In this document: positions 4,036 to 60,854 of the stretch, in pieces | Layout: each line of letters begins with the position of its first letter | How positions within the stretch are numbered: position 1 is the first letter of the stretch | NCBI GenBank assembly: GCA_045645285.1 | Contig: JAZRIL010000006.1 | Span: 1,185-65,184 of the forward strand | Length of the DNA: 64,000 nucleotides | Direction: 5' to 3' | Origin: Elusimicrobiaceae bacterium | Lineage (GTDB): Bacteria; Elusimicrobiota; Elusimicrobia; Elusimicrobiales; Elusimicrobiaceae | Made by a program: the position numbers and the translations under genes | Notes under the pieces: model-generated | Told to the model about the DNA's origin: nothing | Database searches by the model: none | Seen by the model: only the letters and a program-made list of their open reading frames with translations

Positions 4036-4063
4036 TTGACAAATCAAAAAAAAAAACGATAAT
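4036..4063 (+). promoter_or_regulatory. pilin promoter cassette copy 1: TTGACA, 16-nt spacer containing A11, GATAAT
   Basis: TTGACA at 4036..4041, A11 at 4046..4056, GATAAT at 4058..4063. The block is nearly identical to 7827.., 36738.. and 60827... Confidence 0.7.
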
Positions 4064-4097
4064 AGAGTGTCGGACAAAAAAGACAAAGGAGAATTTT

Positions 4098-4778
4098 ATG
4101 GAAAGCAATAAATATAAAAAAATGTCATTCCCGAAATTCGTTGTCGGGAATCTTCCTCTTGTTAACTCGTTAATAAAAGAGGAAAAACAACTTTATTGTA
4201 TGCAAAAAGTGGAAGATCCCCGACAGAAACCCTCGGGGATGACATCTAATTTAATGGGCTTTACGTTAATAGAATTATTAGTTGTCGTTCTTATTATCGG
4301 TATTTTAGCGGCGGTGGCGTTGCCGCAATATACTTTGGCCGTCAACAAATCGCGGTTTGCCAATTTAAAAACTGCCGCACAATCCTTTGCTACGGCCGCG
4401 CAAGTGTATTATTTGGCTAACGGCACCTGGCCCGGTAATTTTGATGAATTGGCCATAGACGCCACCGCCGGATTTACCAAAACCAACAATCCCTATGGCG
4501 GCGGAGTCAATACAGGAACTTGTGCCGGTAATAATGAAATATATTGTTGCATTCTTCCGTCAGTAGAAGGGCAGTCTGCCAGCGTTATATGCGGACGCCA
4601 AGATTATTCTTTCGCCGCGATGCGTTTTTTAACGGACGAGCTAGATGATTGTATAGCAAAAACAACCGATACAAAAGCCGTCGCCCTCTGTAACGCGTTA
4701 GGCTCTTTTTACAGAACAGCCAATATGCCCACCCCGGAAGGCCACAAAAGCGGCTACAGTTATTACCGGTTGCCATAA
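4098..4778 (+). CDS. type IV pilin-like protein (prepilin-type N-terminal cleavage/methylation domain) with a 54-aa leader
   Basis: AAGGAG sits 7 nt upstream of ATG 4098. Motif G|[24 protein letters not shown] is present. The ORF-track start at 3933 runs through the promoter and was rejected. Confidence 0.8.
   Translation: MESNKYKKMSFPKFVVGNLPLVNSLIKEEKQLYCMQKVEDPRQKPSGMTSNLMGFTLIELLVVVLIIGILAAVALPQYTLAVNKSRFANLKTAAQSFATAAQVYYLANGTWPGNFDELAIDATAGFTKTNNPYGGGVNTGTCAGNNEIYCCILPSVEGQSASVICGRQDYSFAAMRFLTDELDDCIAKTTDTKAVALCNALGSFYRTANMPTPEGHKSGYSYYRLP
4124..4243 (+). mobile_element. 120-bp MITE-like palindromic element (two inverted family-1 hairpin units) in frame in the pilin leader
   Basis: Termini are GTCATTCCCGA...TCGGGGATGAC. 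Hairpins are ATTCCCGA/TCGGGAAT, CCTCTT/AAGAGG and ATCCCCGA/TCGGGGAT. A homologous copy lies at 36922..37053. Confidence 0.7.
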
Positions 4779-4810
4779 TTTTTGCCATACCCCTTACGCA
4801 AGCCCGCGGT

Positions 4811-4937
4811 AATTTCAAACTAATTTGGCGCGGGTCTAGGCACGCGCCGACGTAGCGTACATACGCAAACGGGGCGTAGCCCCGCGGGTACGTAAGGAGG
4901 CGCGTAACAACGAGCCGCACCAAATTAGGAAGAAATT
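4811..4937. repeat. family-2 nested palindromic element A (127 bp)
   Basis: TIRs are AATTTCAAACTAATTTGGCGCGG and CCGCACCAAATTAGGAAGAAATT. Internal TCTAGGCAC and TAACAAC boxes and GC-rich inner hairpins are present. An extra outer stem CTTACGC/GCGTAAG lies at 4793..4799 and 4945..4951. Confidence 0.65.
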
Positions 4938-4956
4938 ACAATGAGCGTAAGTTTAG

Positions 4957-4962
4957 TATAAT
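4957..4962 (+). promoter_or_regulatory. -10 box TATAAT 6 nt upstream of ATG (leaderless-type arrangement)
   Basis: Sequence reads TATAATgatgatATG with no Shine-Dalgarno. Confidence 0.45.
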
Positions 4963-4968
4963 GATGAT

Positions 4969-5661
4969 ATGGCAGATACACAAAGCGTCGTCAGCGACGT
5001 AAAACTGTTTTTAGAACGGCTCAAAAAAGAAATGCCGGAAATCTTCGGCACGCAAGAAAAATCCACTCAAACGGATGACGCCTCGGTCGCCCCGGTTGCC
5101 GCTAACAAAGTGCTCTACAACGGCGACTTATTGGAAGCGCGCACGTACATAACGCCCGACCAGGAAGAGGGCGTATCGTTTGACGGTAAAATTTTCCACG
5201 TGTATTTGCAAAGCGAACAAAGCAGCCCTTCTGCGCTGGTTACCCAATGGCTTAGAGACAAAGCCGCCGAAATTCTGCCGCAAAAAACAAAAGACTGGGC
5301 GGAAAAAATCGGCGTGGAATATAACCGCGTGGTATTAAAAGACCAACGCACGTTGTGGGCCAGTTGCTCGTCACAAAAAAATATCAATTATTCCTACCGC
5401 ATTGTCAAAATGCCGCCCGTGGTGCAAGATTATTTAGTCATCCACGAACTGTGCCACTTAAAATTTATGAATCACGGCGAGGAGTACTGGTCACTCGTCG
5501 GGCAGTTCAGCCCGGACTATAAACTCCACCGCCGCTGGCTCAACGAACACAAGGACGCCGTATTTGAAGACGTGCACATCACGCTGACAAAAGACGAGCC
5601 GGAAAAAGAAATGCAAGAAACGGCGGACGCTTCCAATCCAATAGATACACCGCAAAACTAA
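4969..5661 (+). CDS. YgjP/DUF45-family (M48-like) zinc metallohydrolase
   Basis: 230 aa with HELCHLKFMNHGEEYW (an HExxH motif in the context typical of DUF45). Confidence 0.7.
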   Translation: MADTQSVVSDVKLFLERLKKEMPEIFGTQEKSTQTDDASVAPVAANKVLYNGDLLEARTYITPDQEEGVSFDGKIFHVYLQSEQSSPSALVTQWLRDKAAEILPQKTKDWAEKIGVEYNRVVLKDQRTLWASCSSQKNINYSYRIVKMPPVVQDYLVIHELCHLKFMNHGEEYWSLVGQFSPDYKLHRRWLNEHKDAVFEDVHITLTKDEPEKEMQETADASNPIDTPQN

Positions 5662-5670
5662 AACTAAAAT

Positions 5671-5702
5671 AAAACCGCCGGGCACAAAGCCCGGCGGTTT
5701 TT
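5671..5702. terminator. bidirectional rho-independent terminator
   Basis: AAAACCGCCGGGCacaaaGCCCGGCGGTTTTT lies between convergent genes. A second hairpin lies at 5710..5731. Confidence 0.8.
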
Positions 5703-5757
5703 ATAGGAGCCCGCTGCGGCTAAACAGCGGGTGTAACTCAAATTTTTACCGATAACC

Positions 5758-6492
5758 TCAGCGGATAATCGCAAACGCACTTTCGGATACACCACCCAAA
5801 AGCCCGCCGTACGTCCGCACGCGCGTTTTTACCAACGCCACCAGTTTTCCGTCGTAAAATAACGGCTCGCCCAGTTGCAAACGCGGCTCGCTGTATACAA
5901 GGCCGGGACGGCATCGGCGGTGTTGCACCACCCCGCGTGCACGGAAAAACTGTTTAAGGTGTTGTGTCATCGCGTCCCCAAACGCCTCTTGCAATGATTT
6001 CCCCGACGTTACCGGCTTGACCGTCACGTAAGATAATCCTTTTGTTTGCGCCGTATCTACGCGCAACCACGCCACGTCCTCTTTCACGGACACCTCGGAA
6101 GGCGCCACGGAGATTTCTTTCCCATTGGCAAATTGCAAACTAATTTTATCCAACGTATAACCACCTTTCACGGTGCACACTTCCGGCAAGACCACGCGGG
6201 TCCCTTGCGAAACCAACACTCCTAAACATTCGGTTTGTACACGCGATACGGCAATGACTTGATTGGGATTGGCCGGCCGGCGCGGCGAGCGCAACATGCG
6301 GTCTTTCAGCGCAACTTGCTTTTTAAACTGCACCTTGATCGTAACCATATACCGCTCAGCCATTACCTGTGCCGCCATGACGGCGCGTGCCACTTTGCTT
6401 TCCAAAGAAGACGGGGCAGCCCAGGCAACTTGGGCAAGTCCGGCCCCCAGCATCGCCCCCACTACATATATACTAATTTTTGTTCTTATCAT
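5758..6492 (-). CDS. secreted hypothetical protein, possibly a degenerate trypsin-fold domain
   Basis: Signal peptide MIRTKISIYVVGAMLGAGLAQVAWA and SD AAGGAAAG. Segments EDVAWLRVD and LGEPLFYDGKLVALV resemble the Asp and Ser-loop regions of S1 proteases, but the His and Ser are absent. Confidence 0.6.
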   Translation of the reverse strand: MIRTKISIYVVGAMLGAGLAQVAWAAPSSLESKVARAVMAAQVMAERYMVTIKVQFKKQVALKDRMLRSPRRPANPNQVIAVSRVQTECLGVLVSQGTRVVLPEVCTVKGGYTLDKISLQFANGKEISVAPSEVSVKEDVAWLRVDTAQTKGLSYVTVKPVTSGKSLQEAFGDAMTQHLKQFFRARGVVQHRRCRPGLVYSEPRLQLGEPLFYDGKLVALVKTRVRTYGGLLGGVSESAFAIIR

Positions 6493-6647
6493 ATTCTTTC
6501 CTTTTTTATTGGGATAGATATATTATACAAAAGTTAGTTGAAACTAATAAGTATTTTTTAAAAAATATATTTATCGTCATAAATAAACATTTATTTTTGA
6601 TAAATATATTATTTAAAAAGTTAGGAAAGACTTATTTATAGGGATCT

Positions 6648-7172
6648 CTAATACACCCACATTCCCGCGCACGCACTTAGCAGCAGCACCAAAATCGGCC
6701 CGGCTTTGCGCGTCCACACGAGAATAAAAGCCACCAGAAAGAAAAGTATACTTTTGTAATCCACAAAATTTTCGCTATTGCACAGCACCAGCGCGGCGGC
6801 GGCAATTAAGCCCACCACCGCCGGACGAATGCCCGCCAGTACCCCTTGCAGGCGCGGGGAAGATTGGTGTTTGCGTAAGAATTTACCCAACGCAATTAGT
6901 AAAATAAGCGACGGCAAACACAACGCCACCGTGGCCACCGCCGCGCCCCACCCGTTGCCGCAGGCGGTATACCCCACATACGTCGCCATATTGATACCGA
7001 TGGGACCGGGGGTTACTTGGCTGACGGCCACGATGTCGGTAAATTGCGCCGTTGTCAGCCACGCGTGTTTGAAAACAATTTCATTTTGTAAAAATGAAAT
7101 CATCGCATAGCCGCCCCCGAAATTAAAAAGGCCGATTTTAAAAAACGTGATGAATAGTTGCAAATAAATCAT
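6648..7172 (-). CDS. chrA: chromate transporter (CHR family, short-chain), second half-size subunit
   Basis: Start MIYLQLFITFFKIGLFNFGGGYAM chosen. ATGA overlap with the upstream chrA stop at 7169..7172. Confidence 0.8.
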   Translation of the reverse strand: MIYLQLFITFFKIGLFNFGGGYAMISFLQNEIVFKHAWLTTAQFTDIVAVSQVTPGPIGINMATYVGYTACGNGWGAAVATVALCLPSLILLIALGKFLRKHQSSPRLQGVLAGIRPAVVGLIAAAALVLCNSENFVDYKSILFFLVAFILVWTRKAGPILVLLLSACAGMWVY

Positions 7173-7702
7173 TTGGCCTCCCGTCGTAAGGCATACCAAT
7201 ATCCGCCAATACCCGCGGCTAAAACAATATACACGGGCGACACCTTGACTAACCACACCAGAAGGGCTACGGTTATAGGTATCCACACCGTCTTCCAATG
7301 GATATGCGCCGCACGGGCTAAACGGAAAACCGGTACGGCAATCAGTGCCACTACCGCCGGGCGGACGCCTTTAAAAATCCGGATGACAAGGGGATTATGT
7401 TGATACGCGCGAAAGAAAAGAGCAATTAGCAAAATGATGACAAAGGACGGAAGTGCCGCCCCCGCCGCCGCGCAAATACTGCCGCGCGTACGGGCTAAAC
7501 GATACCCGGTCAAAATCGCTACGTTGGCCGCCATAATGCCCGGTGCGGCTTGCGCCAGGGCAATAATATCCAAAAAATCGGCACGCGTAAGCCACTTGTG
7601 TTTATCCACCAACTCTTGTTCCATCAGCGGCAACATAGCATATCCGCCGCCCAGCGTAAAGAGTCCGATTTTGGCAAATACGTAAAATAAAGAAAATAAC
7701 AT
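7169..7702 (-). CDS. chrA: chromate transporter (CHR family, short-chain), first half-size subunit
   Basis: 177 aa containing KIGLFTLGGGYAMLPLMEQELVDKHKWL and QAAPGIMAANVA. Confidence 0.8.
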   Translation of the reverse strand: MLFSLFYVFAKIGLFTLGGGYAMLPLMEQELVDKHKWLTRADFLDIIALAQAAPGIMAANVAILTGYRLARTRGSICAAAGAALPSFVIILLIALFFRAYQHNPLVIRIFKGVRPAVVALIAVPVFRLARAAHIHWKTVWIPITVALLVWLVKVSPVYIVLAAGIGGYWYALRREAK

Positions 7703-7708
7703 ATCTCT

Positions 7709-7714
7709 ATTTTA
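7709..7714 (-). promoter_or_regulatory. -10 box TAAAAT 6 nt upstream of the chrA ATG (leaderless-type)
   Basis: Minus-strand reading is TAAAATagagatATG. Confidence 0.4.
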
Positions 7715-7826
7715 CTATTTCATTACCTCACTTTTAATAACTCACTTTCGGTTAGTTTTTCAGCCCACAAACACAGATGCTTTGTTAGAGCCGTTTAGAC
7801 TCTTGCGTCGGGCTGAAAAGATTTCC

Positions 7827-7854
7827 TTGACAAATCAAAAAAAAAAACGATAAT
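7827..7854 (+). promoter_or_regulatory. pilin promoter cassette copy 2 (TTGACA, A11 spacer, GATAAT)
   Basis: Differs from copy 1 at only 2-3 positions across about 68 nt, including the SD and the first codons ATGGAAAG. Confidence 0.7.
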
Positions 7855-7888
7855 AGAGTGTCAGAGAAAAAAGACAAAGGAGAATTTT

Positions 7889-8560
7889 ATGGAAAGAAAA
7901 AATCAGTTAAAGATTTGTTTGACCTCGCCCCTTGCGGGAGAGGATGCCCACAGGGCAGGTGAGGGGTGTAAAAAAGGAAATAACTTTATGGTTTCCCCCT
8001 CATCGGTTTGTTCGGACTTCGTCCGCCAAACCACTTCCCCCTCACAGGGGGGAAGCCATACGGCAAACAGCGGCTTTACGTTAATAGAATTATTGGTCGT
8101 CGTCCTTATTATCGGTATTTTGGCCGCCGTGGCGTTGCCGCAATATCAAAAAGCCGTTATCAAAGCGCGGTTTGCTAATATCAAAACTGTCATGGCAGAC
8201 ATTAAACGCGCCGAAGAAGCATACTATTTAGCCAACGGAGAATATGCGTTTGATTTGGATGCGCTGGCCACGGAAAGTTCATGCCAAAAATTGTCCGCCG
8301 ATGACGGCTCCACCTATACCTGCGGCTCTTACTTTGATGTGGATGTAATTGGAGCCGTACAAGCAGATGCGACCGCAAATCACCTGTACCTGGACGCTTA
8401 TTACTGTCCAACCGTAGCAAGCACCCATACCCGGGTTTCTCAGTGTTTGTCCGCCCGAGAATTTACCTACCGCGTTTGGTTAGATAATTCCTCCAATCCC
8501 GGAACAATCACCTGCACCGGCACGACGGCACTGGGTCAACAAATTTGCGCCAACCCGTAA
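7889..8560 (+). CDS. type IV pilin-like protein with a 71-aa leader
   Basis: SD AAGGAG and motif G|[28 protein letters not shown]. An alternative internal start at 7988 (AAGGAA upstream) cannot be excluded. Confidence 0.75.
7923..8055. repeat. array of four GC-rich hairpins inside the pilin-2 leader coding region
   Basis: The hairpins are CCTCGCCC/GGGAGAGG, TGCCC/GGGCA, GGTTTG(CGGAC/GTCCG)CCAAACC and CTTCCCC/GGGGAAG. All are translated in frame. Confidence 0.55.
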
Positions 8561-8590
8561 GAGACGGCCCGCCGACCCCAAGAATAACAT

Positions 8591-8650
8591 TTCCCCTATT
8601 CTCTGGTCGTTGCGTAGAGTTTTTGTACGGAATGTAGAGAATAGGGGAAA
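8591..8650. repeat. long hairpin with 14-bp perfect arms TTCCCCTATTCTCT / AGAGAATAGGGGAA
   Basis: Read directly; 32-nt loop; lies 30 bp downstream of the pilin-2 stop. Confidence 0.6.
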
Positions 8651-8654
8651 ATAG

Positions 8655-8712
8655 GATCTCTCTTTTTTATATCCCGCATAGAAAAACTGCGGGATGACGA
8701 AAAAAGAGAGAT
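8655..8712 (-). repeat. family-1 REP-like hairpin (core 8669..8700) inside outer stem CTCTCTTTTTT/AAAAAAGAGAG
   Basis: The reverse complement of the core is TCGTCATCCCGCAGTTTTTCTATGCGGGATAT. Confidence 0.7.
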
Positions 8713-8754
8713 TTTTAATGTCATAGTTACACGCAACAAGCGAAACGCAGAAAG

Positions 8755-8864
8755 CAAATTTGAGGCAAGGTAAGGCCGCAAGTTGAGCGCCGCGTACGTC
8801 GGCAAGACAACGCGAAGCGTTGCAAGTACGCAAGCGAAAGTCGGCCTTAGATTGCCCAAATTTG
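8755..8864. repeat. family-2 nested palindromic element B (110 bp)
   Basis: TIRs are CAAATTTGAGGCAAGGTAAGGCCG and CGGCCTTAGATTGCCCAAATTTG. It shares GCGCCG.CGTA and TACGCAA.CG blocks with element A. Confidence 0.6.
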
Positions 8865-8874
8865 CAAACTGGAA

Positions 8875-10482
8875 TCAATTAAGCCAACCTTCTTGCTTGG
8901 CATAGTTGTAAATGCCGTTATAAATCCCTTGCGCCATTTTTTTCTGAACACTACTTTGGGTAAGACGGCCGCGGTCTTTACTGCTACTGATGTATCCCAT
9001 TTCTACCAAAATGGCGGGGCTTTGCACCCCTTTTAGAACGTAGAAATTGGCTTGGCGCACGCTGCTGTTTTTATTAACGGCAATACCGATGCCCGGCTGT
9101 TTATATACTTCATTACGCACGTAACCGGCCAGTTTGGAACTTTCGTTAATATATTCATTTTTAGCCAGCGATTGCAACAAAGCGTCCACAAAGTTATAGT
9201 GGACTTCTTCGTATTGCATGGCTTCGTTTTCCAACGCGGCGGTTTCGGCGGCTTCTTTGTCGGTGGCTTTTTCACTGCGGAAATAGACTTCAAAGCCGTT
9301 GGCGTTGCGGTTTTTGGAGGAGTTGGTATGCACGGATACAAACAGATCCGCCTTGAAATTATTAGCCGTTTTGGAACGGCCCGAAAGCGGGATAAACGTG
9401 TCATCTTCGCGCGTGATTTTGACTTCAAAATTTCCTTTCTTAAGCAGTTTGTATAACTCTTTACTTACTGCCAAATTGAGGTCTTTTTCCCGCACGCGCG
9501 AGCGGAGGGCTCCGGGGTCTTTACCACCGTGGCCGGGGTCTATGACAATGCGCATTTTTTTATGCGCGGAGGATATCGCGGCCACCGGACCGGCTTTCAT
9601 CACAACCGTCGGACTGGAGGCCTGCATGGTCAGTTGGGTGGCGGTAATTTGCGTTTCACTGGGCACCAACTCTTCGGCCGGCATTTCTTCAATATCTTGC
9701 GGCGCGGCCGCGGCGGGCGGCGTTTGTATTGGCTTAGAAGATGACAGCGGTGCTAGTTTGCCCGCGCCGACCCGGAAATAAATTTTCCCTTCGTTTTCTT
9801 CCACCGTCCAATGCGTGGCACGCTTGCCCAAAATGACGTGCAGTTTGGCGTCGGCGCGGTCTTGGCGGACAGAAACAGACGAGATGAAATCGGTTTTTAG
9901 ACGGAAGTTTTCATCGCGCTTGACGGTAATGTTCGGGAACACCACGTCCACCGTGTGTGCATTGGGCGACTCGGACGACCACGTTACAGGCCCGCGCGCC
10001 GCAAACACAAGCCGGTTTTCCGATGGCGTTAACTGATTATCCGTACGAGATAACTGAAACGGACGCTCCGCCAGCAGTTGGTCATCCGAAAAAGAAATTT
10101 CTTTACCCACGGCTTTTTGCACGTCCGGCAATAGGAAAAATTCCACCGGCACCAACATACTGCCTCCGTCAATTTGTACCGGAGCCGTTAATTGGGCGGT
10201 TTTGGCGTTGATGATAAATTCGCTGAGTCCCGCCGTTAAAATGGCATAAAATCCGCGGGCGGTCAGTTTGGCTTGCTTGGAACGGGCAAACAATTCCACA
10301 CTTAAACCCAAACTGCGGGCTGTTTTTTGCAAGTCCACATAGGTTACGCCGTTTTGCGTACGGCCGGAGAGCATCGTTTGTTTGCGCCCGGAAACCAGGA
10401 GCGGGATTTTATCTTGCCCATATACCGGACAAGACAAAATCCCTAACAAAATGATCCCTAGCAACCGTAACACACGTTCCAT
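8875..10482 (-). CDS. N-acetylmuramoyl-L-alanine amidase (AmiC-like, secreted)
   Basis: Start at MERVLRLLGIILLGILSCPVYG (signal peptide). C-terminal amidase_3 motifs are IDPGHGGKDPGA and FVSVHTNS. Confidence 0.85.
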   Translation of the reverse strand: MERVLRLLGIILLGILSCPVYGQDKIPLLVSGRKQTMLSGRTQNGVTYVDLQKTARSLGLSVELFARSKQAKLTARGFYAILTAGLSEFIINAKTAQLTAPVQIDGGSMLVPVEFFLLPDVQKAVGKEISFSDDQLLAERPFQLSRTDNQLTPSENRLVFAARGPVTWSSESPNAHTVDVVFPNITVKRDENFRLKTDFISSVSVRQDRADAKLHVILGKRATHWTVEENEGKIYFRVGAGKLAPLSSSKPIQTPPAAAAPQDIEEMPAEELVPSETQITATQLTMQASSPTVVMKAGPVAAISSAHKKMRIVIDPGHGGKDPGALRSRVREKDLNLAVSKELYKLLKKGNFEVKITREDDTFIPLSGRSKTANNFKADLFVSVHTNSSKNRNANGFEVYFRSEKATDKEAAETAALENEAMQYEEVHYNFVDALLQSLAKNEYINESSKLAGYVRNEVYKQPGIGIAVNKNSSVRQANFYVLKGVQSPAILVEMGYISSSKDRGRLTQSSVQKKMAQGIYNGIYNYAKQEGWLN

Positions 10483-10499
10483 AACAAACGGGGAATTTT

Positions 10500-11954
10500 T
10501 TATTCCAATACGATTTTGTAATCTTCCCACGCCAGTTGCGGATCGGCCTGGATTTTGAGCGTGCGGTGAATATTCTGCTCAATATCTTCCTGGCGCAGTT
10601 TAATAGCATCGGCCAACACCGGGTGCAATACGACGCGCAAATTTCCACCGGGACGGCCGTTAGTCAGGTCGTAAATTTCGCGCTGGATTTTAATACGCAT
10701 ACTTTCAGCCGATAAAACCCGGCCCGAACCGTGGCATTGGGGACATTCTTCGCTGATGAAACTGCCCGTACTGGCGCGTTTGCGCTCGCGCGTCATTTCC
10801 ACCAAGCCCAAACGGGTGATGGGTAAAATGCGGATTTTGGCCCGGTCGCCGCGGACGGCTTGCGCGAGTGCTTCCACCACGCGGTGACGGCTGGAGGCCT
10901 TGCGCATATCAATAAAGTCAATCACAATGATCCCGCCGATATTGCGCAAGCGCAGTTGGTGGGCGATTTCCTGTGCGGCTTCAATGTTGGTCTGCGTAAC
11001 CGTTTCTTCCTGCGATTTGTTACCGGTAAATTTACCGGTATTTACGTCAATAGCACAAAGCGATTCGGCCTCTTGGATAATAATACTTCCGCCGTTAGGC
11101 AAAGGCAGTTTAATTTTGCGTAAATTATCAATTTCTTTTTCCACATCGTACGCTTCAAAAATCGGCGTTTTGCCTTTGTAGAGTTTTACGCGGTCGGCCA
11201 GTTCCGGCGAGTTCTTGCTGACAAAATCCATCACGCGGTTGTAATCTTTTTCGTTATCCAACATATACACTTTGGCATTTTCGGATAACACATCCCGCGC
11301 CACTTGAAGTACGGCGTCCATGTCTTCGTGTAACAAGCGCGGCGAGCGCGATGTTTCAAACTTCTTGACAATGGATTGCCATTGGCGATAGAGATATTTA
11401 ATCTCGCGTTCCAGTTCTTCTTTAGTGGCTTCTTCGGCTTCCGTGCGGACAATGCACCCCATGCCGTTTAAATGCTTTTCGGCTAATTCTTGCATGATAT
11501 CGTTTAATTTATGGCGTGCTTCCACATCTTCAATGTGTTTGGAAACCCCGACGAAACTTTGGTGCGGCGTAAGCACTAAATAGCGGCCGGGCAAGGTAAC
11601 GTCCATGGTTACCTTCATCCCTTTGGTGCTGATAGCATCTTTGACCACTTGCACCATGACTTCTTGACCTTTGTGAAGGGTTTTATCTATATTCTTTTTA
11701 TCACCGCCGATAACATCGGAAATGTATAAGTAGGCGTTTTTTTCATAGCCGATATTCAAAAATGCGCTGGAAATACCGGGTAGTACATTTTCCACAGTAC
11801 CTTTGTAAATGTTACCTACAATGTTAAGCGCGCCGCGGCGTTCCCACAAGAGTTCGTTGACGCGTCCGTCTTCTAAAATCGCAATACGCGTTTCTTCAAA
11901 CGACGTATTGACCAATGCTTCCACTACCGGAAGTTCTTCGTTAAGTTTGCTCAT
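10500..11954 (-). CDS. rng: ribonuclease G/E family endoribonuclease
   Basis: 484 aa with an S1 domain (GNIYKGTVENVLPGISSAFLNIG) and DVNTGKF and IIVIDFIDM motifs. Confidence 0.88.
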   Translation of the reverse strand: MSKLNEELPVVEALVNTSFEETRIAILEDGRVNELLWERRGALNIVGNIYKGTVENVLPGISSAFLNIGYEKNAYLYISDVIGGDKKNIDKTLHKGQEVMVQVVKDAISTKGMKVTMDVTLPGRYLVLTPHQSFVGVSKHIEDVEARHKLNDIMQELAEKHLNGMGCIVRTEAEEATKEELEREIKYLYRQWQSIVKKFETSRSPRLLHEDMDAVLQVARDVLSENAKVYMLDNEKDYNRVMDFVSKNSPELADRVKLYKGKTPIFEAYDVEKEIDNLRKIKLPLPNGGSIIIQEAESLCAIDVNTGKFTGNKSQEETVTQTNIEAAQEIAHQLRLRNIGGIIVIDFIDMRKASSRHRVVEALAQAVRGDRAKIRILPITRLGLVEMTRERKRASTGSFISEECPQCHGSGRVLSAESMRIKIQREIYDLTNGRPGGNLRVVLHPVLADAIKLRQEDIEQNIHRTLKIQADPQLAWEDYKIVLE

Positions 11955-11988
11955 GTATCAAATCCTCACTTGGGGTATTTCCCCTGTT

Positions 11989-12687
11989 TTAAATCGGGTG
12001 AAACTCGCCTTGCGAATCCCGCCAACATAATTCCTGCCTGATAAAAACTAAACCTGCTAGCGCAATGTTTTCGTCCTGCGGCGGGATTTCTATCCCCGCC
12101 CACGCGGCGACAAACCATTGCGGACTCACCCATTGGCCGTCTACCGGAGCCAATAACAACATTATTTCATCCGGTGCACAAACACGGGCGTCAACCAATC
12201 CCGCCGTAATATTACGCTTGCGCACCGTCTGATCCGCGGACCGCAGGGTAACCGTAAGTTCCCCCACCTTGTTCCACGTTTCCAACTTCCGCCCGGAAGA
12301 AAGATACACAGAAAAATCCCCCTTCACCCGGTACCTGGCCGCGGCTGCCAAGTTCTGCACGGAGGGCAGCGGATACGGTACGCGCGTCAGTTGCAACAGT
12401 TCAAACCCCTTCGGGGCCGTTTGCAACAACGCTTGGCGTACTTCGTCTTCACTGCGTTTTTCCAGCAGATAAATATCCAGGTACTCGCGCTCGGCCCGCT
12501 GTCCTGTAGCGGGAGCCGGGCCGTACGCCAGCCGTGGCAAACTGGCCACAAACTTGGACGGCTCATACGGCAAGCCCGAGTCAAGCACCATTCTTTTTAT
12601 ACCGCGTAAAACGTGTGCATGCTCCGCTGGGTTACCTTGCCAACGGAACACTATACGCATTTTATAAATTTTTGGGGTGTAATTCAT
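11989..12687 (-). CDS. DUF2344/TIGR03936-like (radical-SAM-linked) protein
   Basis: 232 aa. Weak by-eye resemblance plus the commonly seen position upstream of rng. Low certainty. Confidence 0.45.
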   Translation of the reverse strand: MNYTPKIYKMRIVFRWQGNPAEHAHVLRGIKRMVLDSGLPYEPSKFVASLPRLAYGPAPATGQRAEREYLDIYLLEKRSEDEVRQALLQTAPKGFELLQLTRVPYPLPSVQNLAAAARYRVKGDFSVYLSSGRKLETWNKVGELTVTLRSADQTVRKRNITAGLVDARVCAPDEIMLLLAPVDGQWVSPQWFVAAWAGIEIPPQDENIALAGLVFIRQELCWRDSQGEFHPI

Positions 12688-12692
12688 CTTTT

Positions 12693-14012: not shown

Positions 14013-14019
14013 AAATATT

Positions 14020-36737: not shown

Positions 36738-36765
36738 TTGACAAAGCAAAAAAAAAAACGATAAT
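36738..36765 (+). promoter_or_regulatory. pilin promoter cassette copy 3 (TTGACA, A11 spacer, GATAAT)
   Basis: Same block as the other copies. It is separated from its SD by an inserted palindrome. Confidence 0.65.
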
Positions 36766-36787
36766 AAAGAGACGAAAAAAATATAAG

Positions 36788-36862
36788 GTCATTCTGAAGA
36801 CCGCGCCTCGTCATCCCGCAGTGTTGGTATGCGGGATATGGGCGCGGTGAGAAAGGAATGAC
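36788..36862 (+). repeat. three-layer nested palindrome with a family-1 core (36808..36839) in the pilin-3 5' UTR
   Basis: Structure is GTCATTC..ACCGCGCC-TCGTCATCCCGCAGTGTTGGTATGCGGGATAT-GGGCGCGGT..GAATGAC. Confidence 0.7.
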
Positions 36863-36889
36863 ACCCTTGTTGATATTAAGGAGAATTTT

Positions 36890-37543
36890 ATGAACAACAA
36901 AAGCCGTTATGAAAAAGAAGTGTCATTCCCGAATTTGCCCGTCCGGCAAGGACTCGGGAATCTTCCTCTTTCTAGGTCGTTATTAAAAGAGGAAAAACAA
37001 CCTTATTTTATGAAGAAAGTAGAAGATCCCCGACAGAAACCTTCGGGGATGACAACGCTTTTTTATAACGGCAACGGTGGTTTCACTCTCATTGAACTTC
37101 TTGTAGTTGTACTCATCATCGGAATTTTGGCGGCGGTGGCCCTGCCGCAGTATAAACAGGCCGTGGAGAAAAGTAAAATTATGCCTTATATTTCTTCTCT
37201 AAAAACACTGGCGCAGGCACAAGAAGTCTTCTTTTTGGCTAATGGCAGGTATAGTCTTTTTAGCCAAGATTTAGACATTACCGTCCCCTCTACTTGCACA
37301 ACAGTAAATGATAATGTTTTTAAGTGCGGAAATCTAGCATGGATGGAAATTTATAATGCCGAGACTAAAGCCCTACTTTTTGTATATTGTCCGAATAGTC
37401 TTCAATCTTGGGGCACGTGTAATGCTGCTAGTCATTTTGAGTTGAAATATAATTTAGAATCCGGTAACGCATCCTCGTCCGGGTGGGAATGTACCGTTAA
37501 AAACAATTCCTCTTTCGGAAAGTACTTCTGTAAAACTTTCTAA
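36890..37543 (+). CDS. type IV pilin-like protein with a 65-aa leader
   Basis: SD AAGGAG and motif G|[28 protein letters not shown]. Confidence 0.8.
   Translation: MNNKSRYEKEVSFPNLPVRQGLGNLPLSRSLLKEEKQPYFMKKVEDPRQKPSGMTTLFYNGNGGFTLIELLVVVLIIGILAAVALPQYKQAVEKSKIMPYISSLKTLAQAQEVFFLANGRYSLFSQDLDITVPSTCTTVNDNVFKCGNLAWMEIYNAETKALLFVYCPNSLQSWGTCNAASHFELKYNLESGNASSSGWECTVKNNSSFGKYFCKTF
36922..37053 (+). mobile_element. 132-bp MITE-like element, homolog of 4124..4243, in frame in the pilin leader
   Basis: Same termini GTCATTCCCGA...TCGGGGATGAC. About 85% identical to copy 1 apart from a 12-nt indel. Same reading phase. Confidence 0.7.
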
Positions 37544-37551: not shown

Positions 37552-37585
37552 AAAAAAGAGCCACCCAAAAGGGTGGCTCAATTTT
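37552..37585. terminator. bidirectional terminator between pilin-3 and fusA
   Basis: Sequence is AAAAAAGAGCCACCCaaaaGGGTGGCTCAATTTT. Confidence 0.85.
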
Positions 37586-50026: not shown

Positions 50027-50071
50027 ACACTCTTGCACCGTTCTATCCGCGGACAACATAAATATTGTAGC

Positions 50072-50101: not shown

Positions 50102-50120
50102 GGACAACAAAATAAATAGC

Positions 50121-50987: not shown

Positions 50988-51104
50988 GCTTTTTTCCTCC
51001 GTATTTTTTATTATACGGAAAACAAAACTGACCCGCAAGGGAAAAAGGGCCCAACCGTGCCTAGGTCATTGGTCCTATTACTCTTTTTCCGTATGTTCCG
51101 GGTT

Positions 51105-51113
51105 TGCTATAAT
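51105..51113 (+). promoter_or_regulatory. extended -10 TGcTATAAT 6 nt upstream of ATG (leaderless-type)
   Basis: Sequence reads TTGCTATAATatttatATG. Confidence 0.45.
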
Positions 51114-51119
51114 ATTTAT

Positions 51120-51902: not shown

Positions 51903-51990
51903 AAACTTTAATGGATTTTGCTATAATAAACGTGTAGTAACTTAGGAGGATGAAGCACCGCGCCAACCGCGCGCAGAAAACAATTTGAAA

Positions 51991-52168
51991 AACTATATTT
52001 GAACCGTATGTTTAGCATACGGGTTATCTGTTAAAGATTTCAAAAAGGGTCAAATATAGTCGTTATAGGCACGAAATAAACGGACTAATTACCCGGTTGT
52101 TTCGTGCCGAGTGTTTATCGTGTAAGCGATAAACCACGGCTATTATATTTGGTCAACCCTTTTTGAGG
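51991..52168. repeat. composite palindromic region upstream of the OMP gene
   Basis: Three copies of GGT(T)CAAATATAGT in alternating orientation. Inner hairpins are CCGTATG/CATACGG, GGCACGAAA/TTTCGTGCC and GTTTATCG/CGATAAAC. The region ends in TTTTTGAGGCTAGG. Confidence 0.55.
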
Positions 52169-52232
52169 CTAGGTATAACAGCCGTTTTTATTTGGCTTTG
52201 TGCCGGGCCTGGGAAATAAAAAGGAGAAAAAA

Positions 52233-52976
52233 ATGAAAAAAGTAATAATAGCAGTAATTAGTTTGTTGTGTATCGCCCCGTTGTTTGCACACGAATCCAA
52301 TTCGTATATGGCGAAACCGGGACAAGGCAGTTTGTTTGGCAGTAGCCAAAAAACGGATGAGAAAAAAATTGCTCAAGAAACTTCCGTTCGGACGGGCCAG
52401 TTCGGTGTTGGCTTGCGCGCCGGAATCGCCCAAAACGACCCGAAAGACATGAAAGACGAGTACAATACGTTAGGCGATGGAGATTTTAGACACGCTAAAT
52501 TAGAGAAAGGAAATGGTGTTTTTGGTTTAGAAGCATTCTATGAATGGTCTACAAATCAAGAACCGAGTAAGGTAGGCGTCAAACTGGGAATTGATTGGTA
52601 CGGACAGAACAAATTAACACTGGACCAATCTTTGCTTTACATGGATGAAAAGTTTACTGAAACCACTTATGCAGTGCCTCTTACGATGTATTATAAATAT
52701 GACGGCGGCGTTAAAAATTGGAGTTGGTTTATTGGAGGAGGTGCTACATGGATACATTCGGAAGTAGAAACCGAGGGGCTTTGGCCTGATGTGACATTAT
52801 CTAAAACTAAAATCTTCCCGCACATTACGGCCGGAGCAGAATATCGTTTCAATGAAGTGTTTGCTTTAGGGTTAGATCTAAAATACAACATCGCGGCCAA
52901 GGTTAAAAAGGACGGCGATGTTTTGTCTGACCGTTCCGGAATTGGAGCTGCCTTGACAGGTAGATTCTATTTCTAA
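52233..52976 (+). CDS. outer-membrane beta-barrel protein (porin/OmpA-N-like)
   Basis: SD AAAGGAG, signal peptide MKKVIIAVISLLCIAPLFA, alternating beta pattern, C-terminal GRFYF. Confidence 0.7.
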   Translation: MKKVIIAVISLLCIAPLFAHESNSYMAKPGQGSLFGSSQKTDEKKIAQETSVRTGQFGVGLRAGIAQNDPKDMKDEYNTLGDGDFRHAKLEKGNGVFGLEAFYEWSTNQEPSKVGVKLGIDWYGQNKLTLDQSLLYMDEKFTETTYAVPLTMYYKYDGGVKNWSWFIGGGATWIHSEVETEGLWPDVTLSKTKIFPHITAGAEYRFNEVFALGLDLKYNIAAKVKKDGDVLSDRSGIGAALTGRFYF

Positions 52977-52999
52977 TAGAGTCTTCCTCCTAACAAGAC

Positions 53000-53032
53000 C
53001 CCCCGTTTCCTATTGGGAAACGGGGGATTTTA
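53000..53032 (+). terminator. rho-independent terminator
   Basis: Sequence is CCCCCGTTTCCtattgGGAAACGGGGGATTTTA. Confidence 0.85.
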
Positions 53033-53143
53033 TTGGACTTTCACACAAAAAAGGCGTATTTCTAGGCACTTGCGAGAAAAGTATACTGGCGGCGCGGTAT
53101 TATTTCAACGGTTTATAAGCGTTTTATTCAGAGCCAATCGTAT

Positions 53144-53190
53144 CCCCCGCTCGTCATCCCGCAGTGTTTCTATGCGGGATATAGCGGGGG
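53144..53190 (+). repeat. family-1 REP-like hairpin (core 53151..53182) in outer stem CCCCCGCT/AGCGGGGG
   Basis: Core is TCGTCATCCCGCAGTGTTTCTATGCGGGATAT. Confidence 0.7.
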
Positions 53191-53204
53191 GCAATATATA
53201 TTTA

Positions 53205-53213
53205 TGCTAAAAT
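53205..53213 (+). promoter_or_regulatory. extended -10 TGcTAAAAT 6 nt upstream of ATG (leaderless-type)
   Basis: Sequence reads TGCTAAAATacccatATG. Confidence 0.45.
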
Positions 53214-53219
53214 ACCCAT

Positions 53220-53513
53220 ATGGGATATGTCTACATACTGACCACAAAAAATAACAAAATGCTCTATATCGGAGTTACAAATAATTTGCTACGACGTGTG
53301 TATGAGCACAAACAAGGTTTTGTGGAAGGTTTTACCAAAAGATTCCATATTAAAAAATTAGTCTATTATGAGCAATACAATTCCATTCAAGATGCCATAC
53401 AACGAGAAAAAGTCTTGAAAGAATGGAATCGCGCCTGGAAAGAATATCTAATAAATTCTTTTAATCCTTCTTGGAAAGATCTTTACGAAGAAATAGCCCC
53501 CTCTTTTTTATAA
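53220..53513 (+). CDS. small stand-alone GIY-YIG nuclease family protein (COG2827/YhbQ-like)
   Basis: 97 aa containing GYVYIL..LYIGVTNNLLRRVYEH...QREKVLKEWNRAWK. Confidence 0.85.
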   Translation: MGYVYILTTKNNKMLYIGVTNNLLRRVYEHKQGFVEGFTKRFHIKKLVYYEQYNSIQDAIQREKVLKEWNRAWKEYLINSFNPSWKDLYEEIAPSFL

Positions 53514-53517
53514 AAAC

Positions 53518-53561
53518 AACCCTTTTATTTATATCCCGTCTTCACACGTCGGACAAGGGTT
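53518..53561 (-). repeat. degenerate family-1 hairpin in outer stem AACCCTT/AAGGGTT
   Basis: Sequence is TATATCCCGTCttcacacGTCGGAC, which compares with TATATCCCGCA...TGCGGGATGAC. Confidence 0.45.
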
Positions 53562-53592
53562 AAGTCAGCGAGAAAGCAAAGAAACTAAAAAA

Positions 53593-53645
53593 CGCTCTCT
53601 TTTATATCCCGCATAACAACACTGCGGGATGACGAAAAGAGAGCG
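53593..53645 (-). repeat. family-1 REP-like hairpin (core 53604..53635) in outer stem CGCTCTCTTTT/AAAAGAGAGCG
   Basis: The reverse complement of the core is TCGTCATCCCGCAGTGTTGTTATGCGGGATAT. Confidence 0.7.
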
Positions 53646-53787
53646 TAAAAAGGGACCCCTGCCAGGAAGGTCCTGTCCTTTCACACAAAAAAGGCGTCCC
53701 ACCACCCCAAGACTAACATTGTAGAAGATTATATGATTTTTCAAAATCGCTCCAAGTTGCGCGGGCTAGTTGGGCGCATAGGCGTTT

Positions 53788-54054
53788 GGGTTGGCAAGGT
53801 GTTCTGTTTGCTCTATTGCGTTTAGCCGTTTTTGCGTAAGACGGCTAGGCAAAAAAGTGATGGCTATGTAATCATAGACAAACTTTTCTAACAACGCCGG
53901 ATAGCAAAAACGGCTAAACCCTTCGGGCCGCGCCCTTTTTGGTTATCACTTCTTTTTTTGCGCGCACCTAGTTCACTAGGCACGCGCAAAAGAAACTACG
54001 CGCTACCTCAAAAAGTTCAGCGGCGCAAAGGCAAAAAGAGCACCTTGCCAACCC
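53788..54054. repeat. 267-bp element with perfect 14-bp TIRs GGGTTGGCAAGGTG / CACCTTGCCAACCC, containing nested palindromes
   Basis: Inner element at 53820..53919 has 16-bp arms GTTTAGCCGTTTTTGC and CTAGGC and TAACAAC boxes. A second palindrome lies at 53950..53994. Confidence 0.6.
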
Positions 54055-54119
54055 AGTTACGTCAAGGGCAAGGCGGGGCAAAGATACTCAAATGTGGCAA
54101 ATTGTTGGCCAACGATATA

Positions 54120-54156
54120 GCAAACGCCCGCAAAAGATATCTTTTGCGGGCGTTGC
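54120..54156. repeat. 37-bp near-perfect palindrome centred on GATATC
   Basis: Sequence is GCAAACGCCCGCAAAAGAT|ATCTTTTGCGGGCGTTGC. Confidence 0.6.
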
Positions 54157-54211
54157 GAAAACGAAACTTAACAAAGCCGTTAAATAGTGAAAGGGACGGT
54201 ATCCTTTGAAG

Positions 54212-54317
54212 AAAAACCCCTTAATTCTAGGCGTGAGGCGGCGCAGTATACTGTGCGAAGCGGCGCGGTAGCGCCGAGGTATTCAAGCCGCCGAACAACA
54301 ACGAAGTAAGGGGTTTT
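54212..54317. repeat. family-2 nested palindromic element D (106 bp), directly downstream of 5S on the minus strand; likely operon terminator
   Basis: TIRs are AAAAACCCCTTAATTC / GAAGTAAGGGGTTTT. Contains TAGGCG and AACAACAAC boxes and inner hairpins GCAGTATACTGTGC and GCGGCGCggtaGCGCCG. Confidence 0.65.
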
Positions 54318-54336
54318 ACAAAAAAGGATAGAGGCC

Positions 54337-54470
54337 TTGATGAGACCGACATCGATCTACTCTCTCAGCACCGAATTGGGTGCCAATACCATCGACCCTT
54401 ACGAGCTTAACTGCCGTGTTCGGAATGGGAACGGGTGTGACCTCGTCGGAATTAATATCAGTCTCATCAA
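54337..54470 (-). rRNA. rrf: 5S ribosomal RNA (ends approximate)
   Basis: The reverse complement contains CCCGTTCCCATTCCGAACACGGCAGTTAAGC and GAGAGTAG. Terminal helix is GATGAGAC/GTCTCATC. Confidence 0.85.
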
Positions 54471-54637
54471 AGCCTCTATGTTAAAAGAACAAATCGGAAG
54501 GAACCGTCGCTACAACAATTCCTTTCTCGTTAGAATCTTGCTCGCCGTGTTCTAGACGGGTCATCGCGTACTTCTAACGTCAGATAATAGAAAAGCGCAA
54601 GTGTTTCACTTACATATTCTATTGGATTAAAGAATAT

Positions 54638-57646
<3,009 letters not shown>

Positions 57647-57980
57647 ATATTCTTTAATCCTACAGATTTTGGTCATTTCAAATGCTAGATATTGCTATCT
57701 ATATTTTTAGGTATGATAACCATTAACTTTAAGTTAATTGTCTCATGCATCATTGTGTAAGTGTAAGTATATTTTTATCACATGTCAAATATACAAACGC
57801 TTGGCTTTTCTAAAATATACTTTCATTCTCTTTGCTACCCGCCGGACTTTTTATCAATTATAAGCCCAACTACTGGAGTCTTACAAGAGACGATTGAGTA
57901 TAAGTTATCTGATTTTCAAAGAACTACAAATCTGACGCAACATTTTATTTTGAAGTTGCAAGGTTTCTGGTTTAAAGTTG

Positions 57981-58053
57981 TGGAGCTGATCGGGATCGAA
58001 CCGACGACCTCCTGCTTGCAAAGCAGGCGCTCTCCCAACTGAGCTACAGCCCC
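57981..58053 (-). tRNA. tRNA-Ala (anticodon UGC)
   Basis: The reverse complement is GGGGCTGTAGCTCAGTTGGGAGAGCGCCTGCTTTGCAAGCAGGAGGTCGTCGGTTCGATCCCGATCAGCTCCA. Confidence 0.95.
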
Positions 58054-58066
58054 GTTAGTAAGTTGG

Positions 58067-58140
58067 TGGGCCCGGAAGGAATTGAACCTTCGACCTCACG
58101 CTTATCAAGCGTGCGCTCTAACCAGCTGAGCTACGAGCCC
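58067..58140 (-). tRNA. tRNA-Ile (anticodon GAU)
   Basis: The reverse complement is GGGCTCGTAGCTCAGCTGGTTAGAGCGCACGCTTGATAAGCGTGAGGTCGAAGGTTCAATTCCTTCCGGGCCCA. Confidence 0.95.
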
Positions 58141-58271
58141 AGGCTATTTAAAATAAAGAGCATAAACTCTGCAAAACCTTGCTATGTGCGAGTGGCCGAC
58201 TTGAACCAGACTGCGCGTAGCGCACCAGTCTATGGTTACCGACCTATTCTAACTTCCGAAGAAGAAAGAAT

Positions 58272-59783
<1,512 letters not shown>

Positions 59784-60078
59784 AATTAATTACCTTTAAA
59801 TCGCAAGCGGTTTAAAGGCAACTAATCGCTAACATTGAGTTGTTGACTTTTGACTCTACTTGTTTGAATTAACTTGGTGTCCTATTTTTGAAAAGTATAG
59901 GACTTAACTTAATGAGCCATGAACTGTAAAACTTTCGTTTTTCCGGTTCAAATCGCCCATTCGCACATTGCTGTCAAATTTTCATAGAGCGAAAATTCCT
60001 CGTTGCTTTTTCTTTATTTCAAAAAAGCAATGGAATTTTTAACTTCTTCATGCAGCCTTTTCTCTCGGCTACACATAT

Positions 60079-60107
60079 AGTATAGCAAATCTAATTGACT
60101 TTGTCAA
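60079..60107 (-). promoter_or_regulatory. rRNA promoter: TTGACA, 17 nt, (TGc)TATACT
   Basis: Minus-strand reading is CTTGACAaagtcaattagatttgcTATACT, about 300 nt upstream of 16S. Confidence 0.6.
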
Positions 60108-60156
60108 GCCCTTTTTAATTCAACGGCTCAACTTGTCAAATCCTTGCTACCTAATT

Positions 60157-60185
60157 ATTAAAGCATATTTTTTAAAGTTTGTCAA
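60157..60185 (-). promoter_or_regulatory. second tandem promoter: TTGACA, 17 nt, TTTAAT
   Basis: Minus-strand reading is CTTGACAaactttaaaaaatatgcTTTAAT. Confidence 0.45.
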
Positions 60186-60488
60186 GTTTTTCTTGTTTTA
60201 CTTCAAACGGCTTTGCTTACTGCCTAGTTAAAATTTACGAAACATTTAATCTTTTTTGTACCGCTTGGTTATTCAAGCCGGTCATGGCCGCTAAGGACCG
60301 AAGGGATAGATTAAATACTTATTATATATAGTAAAGAACAAAACTAACTTGATCGGCTAGGCTCAGTCCATCGGCTGCCTTTTCTAATATAAGGAGATGT
60401 TTCGCTGCCGAAAAGTTTTCTGTTTGTACTTCACTTTTACTACAGAAGTTTTTTGCTTTTACAAAGATCAATTCAAGACTACCTAAAT

Positions 60489-60517
60489 AGTCTATCAAAA
60501 AAAGACAGAAATGTCAA
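60489..60517 (-). promoter_or_regulatory. third tandem promoter-like site: TTGACA, 17 nt, TAGACT
   Basis: Minus-strand reading is CTTGACAtttctgtctttttttgaTAGACT. Confidence 0.4.
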
Positions 60518-60605
60518 GGCCCGTTTTTCTTTTCCTTTTTAAAAGTGGAAAAAGGGCTCTTGAAAACTTCCATGGAAACAAACCTTTTTGTTTCCGTATA
60601 TAAGT

Positions 60606-60634
60606 AGTGTAGCAGTTTTTTGGGAAAATGTCAA
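60606..60634 (-). promoter_or_regulatory. fourth tandem promoter-like site: TTGACA, 17 nt, TACACT
   Basis: Minus-strand reading is GTTGACAttttcccaaaaaactgcTACACT. Confidence 0.4.
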
Positions 60635-60826
60635 CTCTTTTTTTCTCCGTCGGAGATTTTTATAAAAATTGACTTTATTTCAAAAGAACTGGCAACTTTC
60701 GTTGCGGTTTTGCGCGGTTTGTTGTGCGCTGAAAAACTGCATTACTATTTATATATTTATTGTAACAAAATCTGCGCAACCAAGCAACACTTCCTCTTTT
60801 TCATTTTTCCCGCAGGTAGAAAATTC

Positions 60827-60854
60827 TTGACAAAGCAAAAAAAAAAACGATAAT
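60827..60854 (+). promoter_or_regulatory. pilin promoter cassette copy 4 (TTGACA, A11 spacer, GATAAT)
   Basis: Same block as the other copies. The uninterrupted UTR leads to SD AAGGAG. Confidence 0.7.

Follow-up and report, generated by a model that had tools for sequence, protein, structure and literature searches.

A predicted promoter cassette with a pure 11-nt A/T spacer upstream of dispersed prepilin-like genes in Elusimicrobiaceae, and the possible role of its tract length

We analysed a 64-kb stretch of DNA from an Elusimicrobiaceae bacterium (64,000 nt of contig JAZRIL010000006.1, hereafter the window), in which four prepilin-type genes each lie downstream of a copy of one promoter-like cassette. 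In every copy an uninterrupted tract of 11 A residues (A11) makes up most of the 16-nt spacer between the predicted -35 and -10 boxes. At the level of sequence comparison we can establish the likely anatomy of the promoter, its exclusive link to pilin-like genes, selection on the purity and length of the tract, and the existence of alleles one nucleotide longer or shorter (+1/-1) that are uncompensated elsewhere in the spacer. We propose tentatively, giving the idea a little under an even chance, that slippage of the A tract would provide a slow expression dial, set separately at each pilin locus. The pilin cassettes are probably members of the class of contingency loci that are controlled by promoter homopolymers.

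A pattern search of the window with the 28-nt sequence TTGACAAA(T/G)C-A11-CGATAAT gives exactly four zero-mismatch matches, all on the forward strand, and none in 100 dinucleotide-preserving shuffles of the window. A promoter scanner reads all four sites as TTGACA-16 nt-GATAAT, matching 11/12 consensus positions, and each is the top-scoring site in its own region. The predicted elements are:

4036..4063, forward strand: promoter core of copy 1, with the -35 box TTGACA at 4036-4041, the spacer AATC-A11-C with its A tract at 4046-4056, and the -10 box GATAAT at 4058-4063.
4064..4097, forward strand: conserved initial transcribed region and 5' untranslated region (UTR) of copy 1, AGAGTGTCGGACAAAAAA, with the Shine-Dalgarno sequence (SD) AAGGAG at 4086-4091.
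7827..7854, forward strand: promoter core of copy 2, A tract at 7837-7847.
36738..36765, forward strand: promoter core of copy 3, A tract at 36748-36758.
60827..60854, forward strand: promoter core of copy 4, A tract at 60837-60847.

The four A11 tracts are the only homopolymers of at least 9 nt in the window, the runner-up being a pair of T8 runs. The cassettes lie 34-124 nt upstream of an SD and ATG. The initial annotation had placed cassettes at 4036, 7827, 36738 and 60827, each with an 11-nt A tract filling most of a 16-nt spacer, and the exact matches, the coordinates and the promoter scan all agree with it. It had also described copies 1 and 2 as differing at two to three positions over about 68 nt, and we count two differences from the -35 box through codon 3. 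Its description of a shared sequence after the -10 box, followed by an SD and ATG, is accurate for copies 1, 2 and 4. Copy 3 departs from it, with AAAGAGAC after the -10 box instead of AGAGTGTC and a 91-nt insert before its SD and ATG. The reading of the cassette as a putative sigma-70-type promoter plus 5' UTR common to the pilin-like genes is thus supported.

Native promoters in the same window provide a reference for this reading. Three tandem rRNA promoters are predicted upstream of the 16S gene, each of the form TTGACA-17 nt-TA(T/G/C)ACT with an extended -10 TG:

60079-60107, minus strand: rRNA promoter.
60489-60517, minus strand: rRNA promoter.
60606-60634, minus strand: rRNA promoter.

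Their form, TTGACA-17 nt-TAnACT, implies that the sigma-70 reading is valid in this organism and that a change of one nucleotide in the cassette would fall within the sensitive range of spacing. The 16-nt spacer of the pilin cassette is 1 nt shorter than the 17-nt spacing of these promoters, the strongest housekeeping promoters. A spacer survey of other promoters in related loci yielded too few sites to define a genome-wide optimum, and the three rRNA promoters are the informative ones. All three face away from pilin gene 4.

The promoter might instead be read by an alternative sigma factor, for example sigma-28/FliA with its -10 consensus GCCGATAA, in which case the A tract would not be a -35/-10 spacer at all. 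On inspection, CGATAA in the cassette does match the core of the sigma-28 -10 element. However, a second type of cassette with a T tract, described below, keeps TTGACA while TACATT replaces CGATAA; TTGACA and the 16-nt spacer occur in all three main contexts of the tract; and TTGACA is also the -35 box of the window's rRNA promoters. We give this explanation hardly any credence and regard it as largely excluded. The cassettes were also inspected for a complete sigma-28 promoter, and this candidate was rejected, as the TAAA -35 element 15 nt upstream of GCCGATAA is absent from them. Reading through the cassette revealed no sigma-54 motif (GG-N10-GC), although no motif search was made for it.

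A six-frame scan for class III signal motifs finds exactly four FTLIELL-type prepilin motifs in the window, and these belong to the four genes downstream of the cassettes (the arrow marks the cleavage site):

4098..4778, forward strand: prepilin-type gene 1, 226 aa, G↓FTLIELL cleavage motif from 4257.
7889..8560, forward strand: prepilin-type gene 2, 223 aa, cleavage motif from 8072.
36890..37543, forward strand: prepilin-type gene 3, 217 aa, cleavage motif from 37079.
60892..61401, forward strand: prepilin-type gene 4, 169 aa, with the canonical and insert-free 6-aa leader MKNRQA↓FTLIELL.

All four proteins pass Pfam N_methyl and NCBIfam TIGR02532 (above its cut-off), and their N-terminal helix matches the solved structures of PilA, PilE and GspG. 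Each has the type IV pilin signature G/A↓F-T-L-I-E, in which Glu5 is followed by a hydrophobic helix. They belong to a large family, with more than 4800 database members at E <= 1e-15, and in one related locus (L155) a T2SSE ATPase gene adjoins the pilin gene. The prepilin-type N-termini are combined with C-terminal domains that bring the identity of the mature window proteins down to 38-45% overall, as would be expected of the variable surface structures encoded at contingency loci. The ATG of a prepilin gene does follow the cassette at all four sites, as first annotated, but in copies 1-3 it lies 54-64 codons before the cleavage motif. Leaders of type IV pilins are short and basic, about 5-30 aa; those of genes 1-3 reach 54-64 aa because palindromic inserts in frame code for them. 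A short leader could start from an internal ATG where the insert ends, in gene 1 (MTSNLMG↓F) and gene 3 (MTTLFYNGNGG↓F), but this ATG has no well-spaced SD.

The cassette recurs widely outside the window. A variable-gap pattern scan of one genome per species returned at least 59 stretches. Among those listed, 48 are from Elusimicrobia, including rumen, horse and human-gut Elusimicrobium metagenome-assembled genomes (MAGs), and all 48 lie upstream of a pilin-like gene. The same scan of JGI metagenomes returned 82 stretches, 50 of them with a downstream pilin gene, and most of the remaining long-tract matches are cut off by contig ends. A pattern specific to the window (...CGATAATAGAGTGTC) had no match in the JGI metagenomes, and the generic pattern was used instead. 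After duplicate removal, the matches listed comprise 127 unique copies with an A tract (A-type), in a census that demanded at least eight A's. Every copy with readable downstream sequence lies upstream of an FTLIELL pilin-like gene. Conservation among the 127 copies begins some 10 nt before the -35 box and ends some 16 nt after the -10 box (AAAGgGACggaAAAAA), and the sequence further upstream is unconserved (42% identity). These limits imply the footprint of a promoter and its initial transcribed region, not that of a mobile element. From this distribution, the promoter is family-wide among Elusimicrobiaceae of the gut and rumen (Avelusimicrobium-like). No account of the cassette came up in literature searches.

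The tract is also found in other settings. A T-type cassette, TTGACATCG-T11-GCTACATT, is represented by 24 copies (T11 in 21, T12 in two and T10 in one), all apparently driving pilin-like genes. Read on the opposite strand, its core ATCG-T11-G becomes C-A11-CGAT, the A-type core. The rumen MAG RUG13843 alone contains no fewer than 47 A-type and 14 T-type copies (at least 61 in all). The T-type cassette and the rarer variants are located in related loci as follows:

L016 at 22, L022 at 70, L043 at 58 and 6752, L154 at ~655, and others: T-type cassette TTGACATCG-T11-GCTACATTTTATTT...AAGGAGGTTGTATG.
L158-L163: variant TTGACGCG-T12-GATATTCT, with GATATT after the T12 run.
L059 at ~3245, reverse strand: variant TTGCATTTG-T14-CTTTAAT.
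L144, 3388-3420: variant TTGACA-A10-C-T7-C-TATACT, at another species' orthologue of window copy 1.

The A/T run is thus embedded in five or more different flanks, in either orientation, and in three contexts the spacer totals 16 nt (4+11+1, 3+11+2 and 2+12+2).

In 631 kb of cassette-bearing related DNA, A/T runs of 6, 7, 8 and 9 nt number 1491, 403, 57 and 2, respectively. About 150 runs of 10-14 nt are present in the same DNA, and every one of them is inside a pilin promoter spacer. The repeat is therefore unusually long and pure for the genome (at least 9 nt in the window and at least 10 nt in the 631 kb), as is typical of contingency loci, and it lies between the -35 and -10 boxes, where its length sets their spacing (TTGACA-AATC-A11-C-GATAAT). 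No interrupted tract was found among the 127 copies by a search that permitted interruptions at tract positions 7-11. The free third position of the spacer varies in about 6% of copies, whereas the neighbouring tract is uninterrupted. Tract length is held almost as tightly: 109 of the 127 copies are A11 (86%), ten are A10 and eight are A12.

Could such uniformity reflect recent duplication or gene conversion, with a functionless A11 hitchhiking on it? Copies 1 and 2 fit this description, as almost nothing distinguishes them between the -35 box and codon 3, and only six synonymous changes separate them in the N-terminal helix. The sequence just after the -10 box is also genome-specific, AGAGTGTC in the window and AAAGGGAC in RUG13843. 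However, the family is old: in 86 copies with an identical 24-aa N-terminus, the third codon positions are only 55% identical, which is near saturation, and the mature window proteins have diverged to the extent given above. In addition, the region upstream of the -35 box is unconserved, the homopolymer is found in unrelated flanking contexts, and long A/T runs are absent from the rest of the 631 kb. We consider hitchhiking very improbable and largely excluded. Pure and length-held runs in such old paralogues clearly point to selection, rather than recent duplication, as what keeps the tract pure and at its length. The initial annotation had suggested further that the shared cassette may promote recombination between loci. 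This finds weak support at best, as the nearly saturated third positions indicate an old family that is not being homogenised. Copies 1 and 2 alone have the appearance of a recent pair.

Tract length does vary, and in the manner that slippage would produce. The only variants among the 127 A-type copies are +1 and -1; 14% of A-type copies and 12% of the 24 T-type copies are off-mode, and in RUG13843 this is the case at 8 of 61 loci, so that the subset of off-mode promoters is particular to each genome. The off-mode alleles are uncompensated elsewhere in the spacer, which becomes 15 or 17 nt long, and the genes behind them are intact; such alleles fit what slipped-strand mispairing would leave. 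In one ortholog-like pair the two members differ, A12 against A11, at 93% flank identity.

We propose the following mechanism. Each site would be the sigma-70-type promoter of a monocistronic prepilin-like gene, with a spacer built deliberately from an uninterrupted dA:dT homopolymer. A11, giving a 16-nt spacer, would be the standard expressed setting and the one selected at most loci. A run of 11 nt would be prone to slipped-strand mispairing, so that single loci would occasionally gain or lose one A and might later revert. Judging from sigma-70 spacer rules and the 17-nt rRNA promoters, the resulting 17- or 15-nt spacer would heritably raise or lower transcription of that one paralogue. The outcome would be low-frequency phase variation, or graded variation, over surface filament subunits with highly divergent C-terminal domains, and this may be of adaptive value.

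A number of observations weigh against such a dial, or at least against a fast one. The concentration of 86% of the A-type copies at 11, with none beyond +1/-1 in a census reaching down to eight A's, is itself one of them. RUG13843 is another species, and its orthologues of window copies 1 and 3 are also A11, with flanks 83-92% identical. Tract length is equal in 11 of 13 ortholog-like groups with 90-100% flank identity. Repeat assemblies of one locus from different samples agree in every case, with T12 in 6/6, T11 in 2/2, A11 in 2/2 (twice) and A10 in 2/2. Look-ups with four pilin proteins returned repeated assemblies with identical tract lengths, among those that could be read. Of the look-ups made through the YgjP-like neighbour gene, that of protein P0012 gave two 100% identical loci, both A11, and that of P0021 gave eight contigs from which one promoter was recovered, a different homopolymer variant (L144). 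Classical contingency loci, by comparison, usually differ between close isolates, and 11-nt A/T runs are only borderline hypermutable in mismatch-repair-proficient bacteria. We estimate from these comparisons that the tract changes, at the consensus level, only a few times faster than an ordinary nucleotide site and far below the drift expected of an unconstrained A11. With lengths stable across orthologues and assemblies, nothing at the consensus level indicates that loci flip ON/OFF often. The data appear to fit strong stabilising selection for 11 with an occasional slip to heritable +1/-1 alleles. The earlier suggestion that the pilin paralogues are independently phase-variable is thereby narrowed: the promoter anatomy, the selected tract and the +1/-1 alleles speak for it, but the length is held at 11 and is stable in orthologues and assemblies. 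The comparison of strains and MAGs proposed with it gives a similarly divided answer, with 12-14% of loci off-mode but identical lengths in 11 of 13 groups and in all repeat assemblies.

This stability is what would be expected if the homopolymer were a structural or regulatory element of the promoter, slippage being incidental and mildly deleterious and the +1/-1 alleles being noise of mutation and selection. Rigid dA:dT over a single turn of the helix, its minor groove narrow, could set the 16-nt geometry for RNA polymerase, or the tract could be the site of a family-wide regulator or silencer, such as an AT-hook or H-NS-like protein; in either form, all pilin-like genes would be co-regulated. 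Extreme purity and length conservation in two cassette types (86-88% at 11) argue for this explanation, as does the constant spacer total of 16 nt in three contexts. The core C-A11-CGAT is shared in opposite orientations, as expected of an orientation-independent duplex feature or binding site, and purity is more easily explained by direct selection than by second-order selection for mutability. However, the T14 and A10-C-T7 variants lack the CGAT core, and the regulator is hypothetical. The approximately 14% of loci that are off-mode as the population consensus, with intact genes and with the same off-mode length recurring across samples, are also more than would be expected of strongly deleterious alleles. 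We regard a structural or regulatory role without functional slippage as a serious possibility, while thinking it rather more probably wrong than right.

Both ideas might be combined in a two-tier scheme, which we consider unlikely. The spacer homopolymer would itself be the regulatory code that brings 60 or more scattered pilin-like genes, some 4% of a small genome, under a common switch, and slippage would form a second layer acting per locus. The promoter class would then be defined by its spacer and not by an operator, and the spacer would be read by RNA polymerase or by a dedicated minor-groove-binding factor.

The slippage dial that we propose has counterparts in several known systems. 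In architecture it matches vlp of Mycoplasma hyorhinis, in which a poly-A tract reportedly lies between the -35 and -10 boxes (Yogev et al. 1991; Citti & Wise 1995; both cited in PMC4198240). Both are variable surface multigene families in which each gene has its own conserved promoter block with an uninterrupted poly(A) spacer, and +1/-1 nt changes shift the spacing. However, the vlp tracts are 17-20 nt long, vary widely among clones and switch often, whereas those described here are 11 nt long, of one length in 86% of copies and stable across samples. The family described here is also about ten times larger, encodes prepilin-type proteins rather than lipoproteins, and uses A and T orientations. 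In Neisseria meningitidis porA and opc (poly-G or poly-C spacer) and Haemophilus influenzae hifA/B (TA repeats; van Ham 1993, listed in PMC11868660), a simple sequence repeat in the -35/-10 spacer similarly sets promoter strength stepwise, reportedly. Each of these is a single locus, however, its repeat is of G/C or dinucleotide type, and its variation between strains is well documented. Treponema pallidum tpr and Mycoplasma gallisepticum vlhA have poly-G or GAA repeats upstream of each paralogue. They resemble the pilin cassettes as large surface-protein families with a repeat-controlled promoter for each member, but their repeats lie upstream of or around the transcription start site rather than filling the spacer, and repeat numbers vary widely among paralogues. 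A functional parallel is offered by Bordetella pertussis fim2, fim3 and fimX, where the length of a promoter C-stretch tunes transcription, and the effect of a single-base change is graded, 3.8-fold for fimX (PMC1891110). These too are paralogous fimbrial genes, each with a conserved promoter homopolymer, but the tract is poly-C, lies between the BvgA activator site and the -10 box, and occurs in 3-4 genes. The tracts described here are poly-A/T and occur at dozens of genes, and the unconserved sequence upstream of the -35 box gives no sign of an activator site. The cassette family is set apart from all of these systems by its dozens of loci, its tight length mode, its use of A and T orientations, and its phylum.

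The inserts that lengthen the leaders and UTRs form a second feature of these genes. In the window, the predicted structured inserts are:

4120..4245, forward strand: palindromic element resembling a miniature inverted-repeat transposable element, inserted without a frame shift where gene 1 encodes its leader (RNA fold -49 kcal/mol, z -7.4).
~7912-8058, forward strand: different structured insert, in frame in gene 2 (fold z -3.6).
36782..36872, forward strand: 91-nt palindromic insert in the 5' UTR of copy 3, in the interval from cassette to SD (fold -45.9 kcal/mol, z -7.05).
36925-37060, forward strand: palindromic in-frame insert in gene 3 (fold z -4.3).

All fold far better than shuffled controls (z -3.6 to -7.4), and the inserts of genes 1 and 3 are 89% identical over 101 nt. 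Of the 122 cassette-linked genes, 46 have palindromic elements of this transposable-element-like kind in their coding sequence, between the start codon and the cleavage motif. Window copies 1-3 belong to these 46, and the resulting leaders are 31-88 aa long and always in frame, for example ...APLYPGLQISGMTNGAGG↓FTLIELL. UTR-only inserts are present in 21 of the 122, and an in-frame SD and ATG are kept in all 122. The leader inserts recall the in-frame palindromic elements of Rickettsia. They may be tolerated since the leader is cleaved off, or translation may be regulated by them. Searched with Rfam at gathering thresholds, the whole window yields only rRNA and tRNA, so that none of the structured inserts or UTRs corresponds to a known riboswitch. 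A hairpin core of 32 nt (CGTCATCCCGCAG...TGCGGGATATGG) within the UTR insert of copy 3, at 36808-36839, recurs at 8669-8700, 53150-53182 and 53604-53635, and the recurrences include the interval between the rRNA operon and the upstream genes. From its dispersed copies, we take this core to be a small repeat family. A further hairpin at 37558-37579, GC-rich and with a perfect 9-bp stem, lies between pilin gene 3 and a convergent gene for a 702-aa protein. A terminator scanner scores it as terminator-like on both strands, with a clean T run only after the minus-strand copy. This hairpin is consistent with transcription of gene 3 alone.

The remainder of the window includes:

54344-59783, minus strand: rRNA operon.

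Large open reading frames are of the sizes expected for rpoB/rpoC and ribosomal-protein operons, a matching by size and not by annotation. The homologues of a neighbouring gene, which encodes a YgjP-like protein, are named Candidatus Avelusimicrobium (Elusimicrobiaceae), and the nearest is 94% identical and is encoded on an 857-bp contig. An exact-protein look-up of pilin 4 and its neighbour matched no other assembly. The species represented by the window is rare.

Three further observations were made on related contigs. A 3.7-kb contig labelled as part of an Alphaproteobacteria MAG (JBGUXS010000028.1, L001) carries A-type and T-type Elusimicrobia pilin cassettes with their genes and is probably a binning contaminant. 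Of the eight metagenome contigs that carry P0021, seven (L145-L151) break off in the 5' region of the pilin gene that adjoins the YgjP-like gene. Assemblies from short reads thus seem to fall apart at the repeated cassette and N-terminal coding block, and any survey of these promoters will be biased by it. Finally, the orthologue of window copy 4 beside the rRNA operon in RUG130 (L003, reverse strand, ~2960-3010) has a decayed cassette, TTGATATATTGC-A8-CATAAT, in which the -35 box is mutated and the tract is down to eight. This may be a locked-down promoter.

In gut and rumen Elusimicrobia, a striking share of the small genomes consists of dispersed pilin-like genes. Nearly all such genes are under a few cassettes with a pure 11-nt A/T spacer, and these spacers are the sole long homopolymers in the genomes. 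The cassette offers a testable handle on the expression of these genes, and it can be used as a marker for these organisms. If the two-tier scheme were true, no larger set of homopolymer promoters would be known for a single family, and this one would belong to a phylum with hardly any cultured members. If slippage is functional, the pilin cassettes would far exceed every known promoter-homopolymer contingency family in size and would be the first of their kind in the phylum.

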